DNA of 64,000 nucleotides from positions 1 to 64,000 of the forward strand of contig JBCBUK010000002.1 in the NCBI GenBank assembly GCA_039818205.1. Reading direction: 5' to 3'. A program made the translations under genes and the position numbers. Positions 1 through 5,249 of this stretch are shown one piece after another; within the stretch, counting starts at the first letter, position 1, and each line of letters begins with the position of its first letter. The notes under the pieces were generated by a model. That model made no database searches. It was not told the DNA's origin and was given only the letters and a program-made list of their open reading frames with translations. The DNA comes from Verrucomicrobiota bacterium (GTDB taxonomy: Bacteria > Verrucomicrobiota > Verrucomicrobiia > Opitutales > Cerasicoccaceae).

Positions 1-59
1 AACGATGAGGATGAGCGCGGGGGCCGCATGGCTCCGTTGCTCACTCCGGCTGGTTCGGT
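1..59 (-). mobile_element. Integron attC recombination site (truncated at window edge)
   Basis: Minus strand reads ACCGAAC-CAGCC-GGAGTGAGC-AACGGAGCCATGCGGCCCCCGC-GCTCATCC-TCATC-GTT. This gives an R'' box, a 5-bp spacer, L''/L' boxes that pair with one extrahelical base, a central hairpin, a 5-bp spacer and the GTT of R'. It starts immediately after the stop codon of the 60..326 ORF. Confidence 0.85.
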
Positions 60-326
60 CTAGATTTGTTTGTATATGTATTGGAGTAGGACGAATCCGG
101 ACACCAGACCTACTGCTATCCCTAATGGCACTGAATAGATTCTTCTTTTTCGCTTAAATGCGATTCCACCCAAAAAGGAAATTGATGCTGTCGTGAGGTA
201 AAAAAGAAATAGACCGAATGCTGTTTCTGGGAAATATTCTGTTCCGGTCACGCAAAGCGTCCAAATCAACTGTAGCAAAAGACAGGTAAATCCGGCAGCG
301 ATTCCGTTTCCTATCCTTTGTTTCAT
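60..326 (-). CDS. Integron cassette ORF, small membrane protein (about 88 aa, three hydrophobic segments)
   Basis: ORF track 60..341; the ATG at 326 (MKQRIGNG) is preferred over a GTG inside the core site. It is flanked by GTTCGGT (340-346) and the complementary ACCGAAC (53-59). Confidence 0.7.
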   Translation of the reverse strand: MKQRIGNGIAAGFTCLLLQLIWTLCVTGTEYFPETAFGLFLFYLTTASISFLGGIAFKRKRRIYSVPLGIAVGLVSGFVLLQYIYKQI

Positions 327-339
327 TTTTATTTCTTTC

Positions 340-362
340 ACCGAACAGGTTAGTATAGGCGC
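340..362 (-). mobile_element. attI-like primary integration site
   Basis: Minus strand GCGCCTATACTAACCT-G^TTCGGT: a core site exactly complementary to the cassette R'' box, preceded by a degenerate inverted L box, with no attC hairpin. Confidence 0.55.
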
Positions 363-416
363 ACGATGCGATTGTTACGGGTTTTGTGACTGGTTCGTGT
401 TGGGCGCATGGAACTG

Positions 417-446
417 ACCATAAATATTCCCTAACCGACTCGGCAA
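417..446 (-). promoter_or_regulatory. Possible Pc-like sigma70 promoter pointing into the cassette array
   Basis: Minus strand TTGCCG-N18-TATGGT, about 70 bp upstream of the attI-like site. Confidence 0.3.
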
Positions 447-624
447 CACTATTTTGTGATTGCCTGTTACAATATAAACTCATTTTTGGTTTTCGGACCA
501 TCAACCCTCCCAAAATGGCCAAGAAACCTCGCAATACACAGGGATTGCGGGCGATTGGGGTGGCGCGTATATCAAAACCAGCAAACACAACACCAGAGAT
601 CCAGTCTCAACTTACTAACAAGCC

Positions 625-1041
625 TCACACCACCACCGACGGCTCTCCGTAGAAAGGCACGTGGGCAACCTCCCCAGCGCTGTTATACTGCTTAGCGACG
701 TCAAAGACCTGAACCTCCGGCGGATTCATGTAGACGCCGCGTTCCTCAAGCTGGCGGGCTCGCCATTCGCAGGCCAATCGACAGGCTTCGACATCGCCAT
801 GTTTAATGACCGAGAAGCATTTCGACTCACCCGGGCCGGTTCCTCTACCGACGCAGGCTTGCCAATAGTGATAGCTTTGTTTCTGCATCCGCCGAACGCC
901 TAGAACTTTGCCGTCCTCGTTGAACCATTTCCCGCGAACGGGTCGACCACCGGAACGCTTTAGGACCCTCAGCCGGTCTTTCGATGGGTGCCTAAGCTCG
1001 GACTTTATGCGCCTATGATGGATTTCGAAGTCCGTGAACAC
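625..1041 (-). CDS. Stand-alone AP2-domain DNA-binding protein
   Basis: GVRR..YWQACV..KCFSVIKHGDVEACRLACEWR matches the AP2 pattern GV..W.A..K.FSv.k.G..eA..lA...R. No HNH motif. GTG start directly abuts the upstream TGA. Confidence 0.6.
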   Translation of the reverse strand: MFTDFEIHHRRIKSELRHPSKDRLRVLKRSGGRPVRGKWFNEDGKVLGVRRMQKQSYHYWQACVGRGTGPGESKCFSVIKHGDVEACRLACEWRARQLEERGVYMNPPEVQVFDVAKQYNSAGEVAHVPFYGEPSVVV

Positions 1042-2130
1042 TCAATCAGTTGATTCGAACGAAAGGTGTGGGCCTTCTTCATCCCATCTGAAGCCAAATA
1101 TCCTTTTGATGTCATCAGCTTCTGCATCGCCCAATATTCTTCTGATTATCTCTAAATCCTTCTCTTGTTCTGTTTCCGAATCTCCGAATCCATGCCAATT
1201 CTCGTTCCACGCATCTTTCTGGTATCGCTTGTAGTCTTCTATTAACATCCAGTCTCGAACTAGTCCATACATGGTAGTCCTTGCATCTAGTTCCTTAAAT
1301 GCTGTCGAATAATCATTATGAATGATGTCTTGCAGTTCGCTTAGCTTTGTGACTCCGAACCTTTGTAGTTCTCCAACTAGTTCTTCTAGGCTTGGTTTGG
1401 CAAAAGCTTCCCCAATTACTATTTCATTGTTTTTCGCCCAATTTTTGAGAAACGCTTCGAGGCTAATGCTATCGATAGCTATGTTCAGGTGACCTTCCTT
1501 AGCAGAATGTTCTACTTGCTTTGAGTACTCATCAATCTGCTCTACAAGGTTATCAAAACCTTTGTCCGCAAGCTCTAGCATTCCGGAATAAAGAAATAGT
1601 TCTCTCTCCAAATTCTTTGGAAGTTTGCCTCGGAATTTGTAATTTCGGTCGTGAGCTAATTCTGCCCATGCATGTTGCAAAACCGTTCTGACTTGAATTT
1701 CAAATTTTAGATCTGCGATCTCTGAATACTCAGCCAACTCTTTCCTTTTTGTCCCAAGGCTACAAACATAGTGGACGGAACGATACCCAAACTCGTTGAC
1801 GGAGAGCATTTGCTCCTTGTTGAGACTATTCGACTCGTCGATCGTTAGCCAATCTTCAAGGCGAGAACAAACTGCTGCTACCTGTGACTCAAAATAGGTT
1901 ACGACTCTAATTCCTGAGATATCAGTCATTTGCGCCGAAATATCCGCATAGTTCTTTCGACGGACCTTCTCTTCAATTGACTCTGATTTTTTGGTCCGCC
2001 CTTCAACTGTCAAAAAGTCGATTTCGCTGTTTTTCAGCAAGTTTTCTATTATGTTACGGACTGTTGAGGTGAGTCGTTTATATCTTGGAAGCTCATTCGA
2101 GATCCAATTTTGGGTCGATTCCTTAGTCAT
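1042..2130 (-). CDS. RelA/SpoT-domain small alarmone synthetase with C-terminal extension
   Basis: All synthetase motifs present: GRTKKSESIEEK, DISGIRV, GYRSVHY, EIQVRT, QHAWAELAH. No HD hydrolase or TGS/ACT domains. Confidence 0.88.
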   Translation of the reverse strand: MTKESTQNWISNELPRYKRLTSTVRNIIENLLKNSEIDFLTVEGRTKKSESIEEKVRRKNYADISAQMTDISGIRVVTYFESQVAAVCSRLEDWLTIDESNSLNKEQMLSVNEFGYRSVHYVCSLGTKRKELAEYSEIADLKFEIQVRTVLQHAWAELAHDRNYKFRGKLPKNLERELFLYSGMLELADKGFDNLVEQIDEYSKQVEHSAKEGHLNIAIDSISLEAFLKNWAKNNEIVIGEAFAKPSLEELVGELQRFGVTKLSELQDIIHNDYSTAFKELDARTTMYGLVRDWMLIEDYKRYQKDAWNENWHGFGDSETEQEKDLEIIRRILGDAEADDIKRIFGFRWDEEGPHLSFESTD

Positions 2131-2348: not shown

Positions 2349-2368
2349 GAATCCCGCCCTCTCCGCCA
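2349..2368 (+). mobile_element. Duplicated tRNA-Ser 3' end; putative attR boundary of a genomic island
   Basis: GAATCCCGCCCTCTCCGCCA is a T-loop remainder, T-stem, acceptor stem, discriminator G and CCA typical of tRNA-Ser. The preceding sequence cannot form the tRNA 5' half. Confidence 0.75.
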
Positions 2369-2786: not shown

Positions 2787-5249
2787 ATGAACTCAATATC
2801 CGACGAACAACTCCTCAGAGCGATTGCTGACTCTGCCTGCCCAGACAGTCTACAGATACTGCTTGAGCGATATCGAACTCTAGTTGAGCGGATTTCGCGG
2901 ACAGTTTTGTGTGAGCATCAGGATATCGAAGATGTTCGGCAAGAGGTGTTTATCCAGCTACAACGCAAGGCATCCTCAATATTAGTGGATGACTCGCTCG
3001 CTCCATGGCTCTATCGGGTTACTCGTCAAACTGCTTTGAATTATCTTAGGGCTCGGCAACGGCGGGAAAGTCGTTGGGCCCGTTATGGAGAAACCGAAGT
3101 TCTCATTGGAAAAGGGGCAAACATTCCGGATAAAGAGTTATTATGTCGCGAGCTGGCCGAGCTCTTAGATGGGTGCCTGGAGGAACTCGAAGACGAAAAT
3201 CGCGATTTAATAGTGAGGCACTACTGGAATGGACAAAGTGTAACCGAGATTGCTGAGCAGTTTGAGATCCGGCCTGACTCCGTTTCGATGCGATTGATTC
3301 GAGCGAGAAAGCAATTGAAGAAGCTTGTTGTGACGGCAGGCATCGGGTCGAGCGCTTTGACAAGTTACGCAGAGATGCTCTCAGACGATTCGAGTATGTT
3401 TGGCGCCGATTTGTCTAGCTTGCTAGAGGAAAGCATTTCTCCGGTAGCATCTTCCGCCAGCGGTATTGGCTCAACTGGAGTTAGCTGGGTCTCAATGGCA
3501 ATTGCCAGGCCCGTTGTTTTGTTGTTGGCGTCGGTTGGTGCTGCCACGATTGCGGCATTGCTCGTAAGTAATAGTAGAGCGGTTGAGAGCTCGGGTGATG
3601 TTGCAAGGAGCCCGTCGACTGCAGTTTCTCTGGAAGAACCGATGGTCGCCCGGCAGGGTGCCCATCCAATCGATGTGCTCGCCAAACAGATGAAAGAGGA
3701 GCCTTACGGGCTGTCCCACCGGCGTGAATCATTTGTTCCGGTTTTGAGGAAGATCGACGCATTTATCGAAGACTACGGTGTCGACCTCCTGTATACGAGT
3801 GACGGGCAGCACCTGTTGCACGTCGCATCAAGTGTTCATGCGGATGAAATTGTCGCATTCTTGTTACTCCGTGGAGTGGATCCGGACGTCGAAGACAACC
3901 TTGGTCAGACAGCTTTATTTTATGTTGCCGGGAAGGGATTTACGAGGGCAAAAATTATTCGGGACCTACTTTGCTTTGCCGAAGCGGATGTCGACCACCG
4001 CAGCACGGAAAGCAAGACGCCGATCATGGTTGCTGCCGAGAACGGCCTCTCTGAGAACATCGAGTTTTTGGGTTGGTTGGGGGCATCGCTTTATCCGCGT
4101 GATGTACCCATTGAGCTAATGCCATCGGTGCTAGCGTTGAACAATGGTCACGAGGATCTGTATGAGCTTCTTCTGAAGTATGAGAATACTCCGCCACCAA
4201 CTTTGAATGATGAGCCCACCGAGATTCCAGATTTCATTCAAAATAGTTTTATTGAAGCAGCGAGAGTCGCAGATTTTTATCAGTTGGACGAGTTGCTTGC
4301 AGATGGTGCTGATATCGACGGGCGTGATGAGTCCGGAACAACCGCCCTATTGCGGGCCATTAGGGCACTGCAGCCGGAGGTGGTTTCCTACCTGCTGTTT
4401 ATGGGGGCGGATCCAAACATCGGATATCTTAATGGAAGTCCACCCTTGAGCAACTGCATGGGTTGGCATGGGAAAAATCCTGATTGGATGCGGGCGATGC
4501 TGCTTCTTGCTGGAGCTGATGTTGACCATATCCGAAACGACGGCCACACGGCGCTAACCCGGGCGATCCGGAGAGAGAATACGCATGGTGTTCAATGGTG
4601 TATCCTTTACGGAGCTGATCCCGATGAGGAGACTGAAATGGGGACTGCGATGCACTATGCGAGTAAGCGAAGTGCTCAGCGTATTGTTGATATTCTGTCT
4701 TGGAATGGCGTGACCGAGGAGCCTTATTCCAGTGATGACCCCAATTGGCTTTTGTTTGATGCCGTGAAGCGTGGCGATCAGGATTCGATCCATCGCATCT
4801 TGGAGGACCAAGAAGCCTCAATTGATCAACTTAACGATCAGGGTTGGTCGCCGTTGATTGCCGCTATTCATTCGCATCGATACGATACTGCCCGAAAGCT
4901 GTTGGAACTAGGTTCCGGTATTAATTATCAGTCCAGTACCGGAGCGACACCACTGTATGCTACCTGTGGTTGGAATAGCCGGTCGGTGAATCAGTTTCGA
5001 CAGGAGTTGATTGATGCAGGAGCGGATATCGAATTGCCAAACCACCGCGGTGAAACACCCTTAATGAGGGCTTGTAAGCATGGTCGTTTTTATGAGGGGG
5101 GATCAGTCGATCAAATCATAAAAGCTGGGGCCAATCTGTACGCAAAAGATGATCAGGGCCGCACCGCGCTAGACTGGGCAAAAGAGAGTGGGCGAACCGG
5201 AGCCTATAATCATCTGCTTGAGATCATGGAGTCTGGCGAAGATCGGTAG
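2787..5249 (+). CDS. ECF sigma-70 factor fused through a transmembrane segment to a long ankyrin-repeat domain
   Basis: Sigma2 (DIEDVRQEVFIQL..PWLYRVTRQTALNYLR), sigma4 (SVTEIAEQFEIRPDSVSMRLIRARKQL), hydrophobic VVLLLASVGAATIAALLV, then many ankyrin motifs (GQTALFYVA, KTPIMVAA, GTTALLRA, GWSPLIAA, GETPLMRA, GRTALDWA). Confidence 0.88.
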   Translation: MNSISDEQLLRAIADSACPDSLQILLERYRTLVERISRTVLCEHQDIEDVRQEVFIQLQRKASSILVDDSLAPWLYRVTRQTALNYLRARQRRESRWARYGETEVLIGKGANIPDKELLCRELAELLDGCLEELEDENRDLIVRHYWNGQSVTEIAEQFEIRPDSVSMRLIRARKQLKKLVVTAGIGSSALTSYAEMLSDDSSMFGADLSSLLEESISPVASSASGIGSTGVSWVSMAIARPVVLLLASVGAATIAALLVSNSRAVESSGDVARSPSTAVSLEEPMVARQGAHPIDVLAKQMKEEPYGLSHRRESFVPVLRKIDAFIEDYGVDLLYTSDGQHLLHVASSVHADEIVAFLLLRGVDPDVEDNLGQTALFYVAGKGFTRAKIIRDLLCFAEADVDHRSTESKTPIMVAAENGLSENIEFLGWLGASLYPRDVPIELMPSVLALNNGHEDLYELLLKYENTPPPTLNDEPTEIPDFIQNSFIEAARVADFYQLDELLADGADIDGRDESGTTALLRAIRALQPEVVSYLLFMGADPNIGYLNGSPPLSNCMGWHGKNPDWMRAMLLLAGADVDHIRNDGHTALTRAIRRENTHGVQWCILYGADPDEETEMGTAMHYASKRSAQRIVDILSWNGVTEEPYSSDDPNWLLFDAVKRGDQDSIHRILEDQEASIDQLNDQGWSPLIAAIHSHRYDTARKLLELGSGINYQSSTGATPLYATCGWNSRSVNQFRQELIDAGADIELPNHRGETPLMRACKHGRFYEGGSVDQIIKAGANLYAKDDQGRTALDWAKESGRTGAYNHLLEIMESGEDR

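Follow-up and report, generated by a model that had tools for sequence, protein, structure and literature searches.

This locus raises the question of how a gene cassette came to be placed at what looks like the attachment site (attI) of an integron, when no integron integrase gene (intI) lies beside it. The window, i.e. the whole stretch of 64,000 nucleotides that was analyzed, is the start of contig C2 in a 4.85-Mb assembly of 66 contigs (hereafter G000). The cassette occupies its very beginning, on the minus strand. Taken by itself, the lone cassette within the window is ordinary.

The recombination site of the cassette was examined first. The attC site (1..59, minus strand) measures 63 bp in full, the final 4 bases of R' being located on contigs C14 and C45. 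It is incomplete here, the first position of the window being also the first of contig C2; R' reads GTTAGCT on C14 and GTTTGGA on C45. Read on the minus strand, the stop codon of an 88-aa ORF (TAG, 62-60) adjoins R'' (ACCGAAC, 59-53), followed by a 5-bp spacer, by L'' (GGAGTGAG, 47-40, with an extra G at 44), by L' (CTCATCC, 15-9), which forms 7 of 7 pairs with L'' once the extra base is removed, and by another 5-bp spacer before GTT (3-1). At the opposite end of the cassette, the core GTTCGGT (340..346, minus strand; crossover G|TT at 346/345) complements R'' exactly, an agreement expected by chance in 1 case out of 256 with GTT fixed. A covariance model, R1, was built from 10 attC of other arrays in this genome, the window site being excluded and the box structure being fitted by hand. 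In this training set two-sided changes were found in 10 of the 15 pairs, and none of 500 shuffles reached the covariation score. R1 gives the complete window site 41.8 bits (E 2e-10), and its truncated form 29.7 bits (E 1e-6); it has no other match at E<=1 within the 64 kb. Two other approaches were dropped: the folding energy, which is not unusual compared to shuffles (z -0.04 to -0.53), and a strict pattern scan of the genome, which was too narrow and noisy. Positions 1-59 are thus confirmed as a real attC. The earlier note had described it as well-formed and its 5' core as the exact complement of R'', and both descriptions hold: the boxes, the AAC/GTT pairing, the extra base in L'' and the position after the stop are all present, and a model made from other sites of the genome recognizes it.

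The first 77 bp of the window (1-77) overlap two contigs, C14 and C45, which diverge directly after GTT. On C14, in a join that rests on this 77-bp overlap, the next unit is a TIR cassette (PF13676; PADLOC PDC-S66, E 2e-106) with its own attC (36.9 bits, a site that was part of the R1 training set). Next come an ORF of 138 aa, whose attC is weak (12.1 bits, E 0.48), and one of 153 aa, whose attC-like site is decayed and was recognized by eye; beyond these cassettes lies a converging MafI-like ORF (below cut-off). The window cassette had been proposed as the first of an array, and the array does continue to the left, with three further cassette-like units and more attC sites on C14. C45 leads instead to the backbone of a sister element: a 142-aa ORF, an RHH gene, an HTH gene, a REP_ORF2-G2P Rep and a cut integrase with 90% likeness to the integrase found at tRNA-Ser(GGA). 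The window cassette branches exactly at both GTT borders in the assembly graph and in the read graph, which is indirect support for the presumed recombination of this attC. Among the 8 of 31 pieces listed for the read graph of run X1, which is probably the source sample and hence not independent of the assembly, one covers exactly 1-346, from crossover to crossover. Within the same 8 of 31 pieces, the depth of the cassette piece (29.8) is twice that of its own module path (15.1), yet just 1.2 times that of the flank (24.6). Most likely, another array ends in a second, identical copy of this cassette, an outcome that copy-and-paste recombination gives (PMC8024014). Two copies in the genome are therefore likely but not certain, and a mixed population could also produce the branching. 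As a separate observation, both tRNA-Ser arrays (L014:2049-2129; G000 C1:626870-626949) end in the same 81-bp sequence (98.8%), next to the 3' end of the integrase.

The DNA upstream of the cassette had been called attI-like, a view borne out by its homology to the intI-proximal DNA of a relative, G003. The 264 bp in question (347..610, minus strand), hereafter the module, are 68% like the attI-intI DNA of G003 and 91% like another copy on contig C16 of G000. As the G003 copy on its contig C11 directly precedes intI, the module corresponds to the DNA that separates attI from the intI start in complete integrons. The C16 copy is located ahead of an intI remnant; the window copy breaks off some 100 bp before the intI start. 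In complete integrons attI lies between intI and the first cassette, with cassettes joining at G|TT, and the comparison confirms the window site as an attI. Six full copies of the module were found in G000 (window, C16, C1, C39, C9 and C5), each heading different first cassettes, plus a partial copy at the end of C9. BLAST detected the module in one of 40 relatives, G003, at 9 places, and a profile made from the G003 copies alone retrieved the six G000 places at E<=4e-15, the next best match having an E of 0.55. In all 15 copies the likeness ends at the core (12 GTT, 2 GAT, 1 ATT), with an ORF starting 12-40 bases past it. The first attC closes exactly on the core in 6 of these 15 copies and with one mismatch in 3, and no clear closure is seen in the other 6. 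Conservation peaks at 347-381 and stops at the junction core, where the read-graph piece 1-346 also ends. Among the named genomes scanned, the exact attI motif occurs at 6 places in one Cerasicoccus arenae assembly (Opitutales), which may coincide with a genome already compared and was kept out of the separate count; the motif was not found in JGI metagenomes. A short stretch of G000 (C25:35725-35752) matches just the last 28 bases of the module; next to it, at the contig end, a sequence resembling the start of a cassette is seen.

This homology also bears on the possibility that the cassettes were inserted in a secondary site of the island (attG, GWT), the upstream DNA being no attI. Such insertions are frequent in experiments, according to Loot et al. 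(10.1101/2022.09.11.507474), and their SALIN/attG insertions resemble the window site in having cassettes outside a complete integron; moreover, a tRNA-Arg island on C5 of G000 carries an array without the module. The 264 bp shared with both the G003 attI-intI DNA and the C16 copy nevertheless refute it here and leave it with hardly any credibility: the insertion is at a true attI copy, not at a GWT site in unrelated DNA. That tRNA-Arg(CCG) island (at 75-80 kb on C5; L020:3953-8500) contains five attC and no attI module, together with an integrase remnant, an HNH ORF akin to window 625-1041 and a second TIR-like cassette. Isolated attC of SALIN-like appearance, with no module nearby, were also observed at L087:7184-7270 (C7, 34.9 bits) and L088:5227-5286 (C19, 26 bits).

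The module is presumed to hold Pc and PintI, and judging from its position and conservation the leader would contain Pc. The possible promoter mentioned in the earlier note was not recovered: between 340 and 625 no sigma-70-type consensus is present on the cassette strand, and the count over the whole region is at chance level. For a Verrucomicrobia LexA box, the matches had 3 mismatches at best. Three other candidates were rejected. A hairpin at 549-530 was considered as a terminator, and its left arm is missing from the G003 copies. A 144-aa ORF (154-588) and a plus-strand peptide starting at 516 were discarded as genes: this region is the non-coding leader, and in G003 and C16 intI begins some 100 bp beyond it. 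Just upstream of the module, four of the intI-less G003 copies, or satellites (L054, L055, L060 and L062), share a GTAG-tagged hairpin that is absent from G000 and that we presume to be comparable to a REP repeat.

The module and its cassettes are included in a tRNA-targeted island, as had been suggested. The island is 6,033 bp long, with a G+C content of 45.7% against 52.7%. A 368-aa tyrosine integrase (phrog_1) and then tRNA-Ser(GCT) are found at its far end on C14, and its right border (attR, 2349..2368, plus strand) is a 20-bp copy of the 3' end of this tRNA. The island thus shows the organization of an integrative element: a tRNA at one end, the 3' duplicate at the other and a tyrosine integrase inside. 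In this it is similar to other tRNA-targeted elements, as it is in its integrase next to the tRNA, low G+C and defence-type cargo, the difference being that its cargo is an attI-headed cassette array. The sister element on C45 differs from it by the addition of a rolling-circle Rep, an HTH gene and an RHH gene. In the island integrase 48 residues separate the GKG/KK motif from LRHSFAT, versus 102 in three IntI, so it is not an IntI; the integrase adjoining the array from the other side is hence one without the IntI insertion. A different integrase follows tRNA-Ser(GCT) in 3 of 4 relatives, which marks this tRNA as a hotspot of integration. The relatives carry other DNA at this tRNA and have no flanking DNA syntenic with the window, so that an empty site was not observed among them.

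According to the earlier note, the usual place of intI was held by AP2 and alarmone-synthetase genes. The second part stands: a small alarmone synthetase (SAS) with a RelA/SpoT domain (1042..2130, minus strand; PF04607 E 7e-20) keeps the synthetase motifs and shows a partial match to PDC-S33 (E 8e-23) and membership of phrog_9640. The AP2 part has to be amended, as the ORF at 625..1041 (minus strand) is a truncated remnant, the tail of an HNH-AP2 gene without the HNH core of its C5 paralogue (PF00847 E 0.03, below cut-off). As no attC follows SAS with the R1 model, the gene is island cargo and not a cassette. Just outside the island, positions 2787-5249 (plus strand) encode an 820-aa fusion of an ECF-type sigma-70 factor and ankyrin repeats.

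Three of the G000 module copies (window, C39 and C9 end) lie in or by tRNA-Ser att repeats. Nine further loci of G000, in tRNA islands or in the backbone, contained no attC. A family of tRNA-targeted elements was also noted in this genome (L013 on C45; L078:1274-5547 on C7; L080 on C48; L079 on C42), with a tyrosine integrase, a REP_ORF2-G2P Rep, HTH/RHH genes and a shared ORF of 142-166 aa; since the C42 element adds a Zot/gene-I ATPase, they may be inovirus-like elements or satellites. Seven tRNA genes are found within 1 kb at G000 C16:13079-14107, as on a mobile element.

With at least two attC (two strong, of 41.8 and 36.9 bits, and one weak, of 12.1 bits) and no intI within 4-10 kb, the array corresponds to a CALIN (Cury et al. 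2016, PMC4889954). It shares with CALINs a short array without nearby intI and a genome without intact intI, the latter as for half of the CALINs in PMC4889954. It differs from them by a module present in multiple copies and by the location of the array within a tRNA island that carries a phage-type integrase of its own. Taken alone, the description of the locus as an attI-bearing CALIN on a tRNA-Ser island is very probably correct.

The complete integrons of the genus provide the point of comparison. The sedentary chromosomal integrons of G001 (C29), G005 (C38) and G003 (C11, with a stop), which have a long-form IntI, show the same succession of attI, leader and divergent intI, and the same attC family, their sites being found by R1. 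In the window the copy is cut before the intI start, and the HNH-AP2 remnant and SAS take its place; no intI with the I2 insertion is found by this attI. Loss of the integrase, as had been proposed, is supported over the whole genome: nothing exceeds the TIGR02249 cut-off in G000 (best, 82 of 265 bits, a XerD), and tblastn with five IntI returns XerC/XerD-type matches alone for the catalytic half. The intI scraps of G000 found by tblastn are all N-terminal. They comprise aa 1-180 at the C16/C39 join, aa 55-171 standing alone at 195 kb on C1, aa 164-198 on C1, and aa 38-61 joined to a rep fragment on C48, next to tRNA-Arg(CCT); at the window, C39, C9 and C5 copies tblastn detects none. A further candidate, C12:1702-1914, proved by inspection to be a XerD-type fragment. 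At C39/C16 (L017:5100-8117 and the end of L015) two platforms come together, as an array linked to a tRNA-Ser repeat runs into the broken intI 5' half of the C16 platform.

An intact intI could have been present and simply missed by the assembly, the site then belonging to an ordinary integron, split or mis-assembled. There are 66 contigs, several arrays stop at contig ends, and the assembly seems to lack pieces shorter than about 500 bp. This explanation is nonetheless very unlikely: on the window side of attI the sequence is unbroken through the tRNA repeat and beyond (9.4-kb read-graph piece), the catalytic half of intI would span about 780 unique bases and is represented by XerC/XerD-type matches alone, and genome completeness is 99.97%. 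The loss of intI thus remains the preferred reading. An intI match was found in 4 of the 5 other genomes of the genus, the fifth being 72% complete. G001 and G005 have an intact gene; in G002 it is split into two pieces located at contig ends, and in G003 it is interrupted by one internal TGA (TIGR02249, 365 bits).

The manner in which intI-less sites acquired cassettes was addressed mainly with the relatives rather than with G000. Each of the four other near-complete genus genomes searched contains several attI modules and no more than a single intact intI. The own attI types of G001 and G005 gave 13 further places in G001, G002 and G005, with a same-strand attC downstream in 12 of them and an intI remnant in none within the 2.6-7 kb fetched. 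In G003 an attC match is associated with 8 of the 9 places, and none of the 8 satellites shows an intI remnant. Seven satellites fall into a single clade (100/99; one long branch) to which the intI-linked copy does not belong; the latter clusters with the copies of G000 (94/95, unstarred). With the exception of G003_C6 and C24, the satellites show 80-93% likeness; several have in common upstream DNA that is not intI, and the first cassettes all differ among the G003 copies. G005 has an intact intI, and the second cassette of its intI array (C38) recurs as the first cassette of the intI-less attI of C31, the two being identical over a shared stretch that runs for 77 bp from GTT to the contig end (L064:8463-8539; L121:370-457).

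Two readings compete for these data. In the first, each copy was once a complete integron, loaded in cis, and lost its intI later, so that the copies are independent fossils never loaded in trans. It would account for the intI remnants of differing extent found by or near copies (C16/C39, C1, C48), and integrase decay is common, as stated for Xanthomonas in a preprint (10.1101/2025.06.18.660453). The G003 satellites fit it poorly, being alike, with shared non-intI upstream DNA and no remnant, yet with differing first cassettes; so does the G005 cassette, identical at an intI array and at an intI-less attI. We consider it unlikely. On the other hand, the full copies of C16 and C1 and the C48 branch of G000 may have loaded cassettes with their own intI, given the intI scraps kept there. 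The second reading, loading in trans after the loss of intI, is the one favoured by the G003 clade, the missing remnants, the differing cassettes and the shared G005 cassette. No tRNA was present in the fetched flanks of the G003 copies, so tRNA islands are not the general vehicle of the module.

The product of the window cassette was also considered. Its ORF (60..326, minus strand, ATG at 326) encodes 88 aa with three hydrophobic stretches, predicted as a three-helix model (pLDDT 77). Two remote homologues were found (39-43% in the alignment, E 9e-8 and 5e-7), as well as a weak likeness to DUF3792/TIGR04086, below cut-off. A word-index search gave no homologue, atlas matches stayed under 0.9, none credible occurred among 300 other genomes of the order, and P0001 was rejected as a repeat artefact. 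An accessory membrane protein, expressed from the first position of the array, is the most likely product. The earlier note had named it as a defence candidate, a proposal that gains nothing from PADLOC and PHROG (no match) or from comparison of the model with the PDB (no fold match). A role in phage defence is improbable, although cassettes without recognizable domains can still protect against phage (10.64898/2026.03.17.712381); the adjoining TIR cassette is a better defence candidate.

Taken together, these results lead us to view this locus as an attI-bearing CALIN that lost its intI, belongs to a family of satellite docking sites probably loaded in trans, and is now fixed; the probability of this whole reading is about 0.7. 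The ancestor would have been an integron with a long-form IntI (about 420-470 aa). Its platform would have been copied to several sites, in G000 partly inside tRNA-targeted elements, and intI would have been deleted at different points among the copies. An IntI made elsewhere in the cell may then have kept inserting cassettes at intI-less copies (attI x attC), with copy-and-paste outcomes, the leader presumably transcribing the first cassette. Without intact intI the arrays would now be fixed, unless an IntI arrives. A bolder proposal, which we put forward tentatively and consider somewhat less probable than its opposite, is that the integron of the genus is a distributed system. One IntI would serve five to nine scattered attI-leader modules, each of them a separate slot for first-position expression, and the G000 tRNA-Ser element, reduced to integrase, attI module and array, would be a mobile platform for capture, one that has no need of an intI of its own and can carry loaded arrays between strains.

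CALINs, intI decay and trans mobilization are all on record (PMC4889954, 10.1101/2022.09.11.507474, 10.1101/2025.06.18.660453, 10.1101/2022.02.06.479319, PMC8024014, PMC8876359 and 10.64898/2026.03.17.712381), and PMC4889954 states that no intI pseudogene lies near 95% of CALINs. For multi-copy intI-less attI platforms no paper was found in a search thin on subscription journals, and supplementary CALIN tables may list such loci. As to the origin of CALINs, copying of the attI platform itself is a concrete route in these genomes. The copies are invisible to pipelines because attI is sought within classes 1-3 alone. If they were loaded in trans, many CALINs would be live capture sites, and in place of a single strongly expressed first position the cell would gain several. 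Service in trans is directly testable with the fifteen natural variants of this attI and cognate IntI genes. As the same docking module heads several separate arrays, here and in relatives, these genomes suggest that one recombinase may be able to serve many scattered gene-capture sites.
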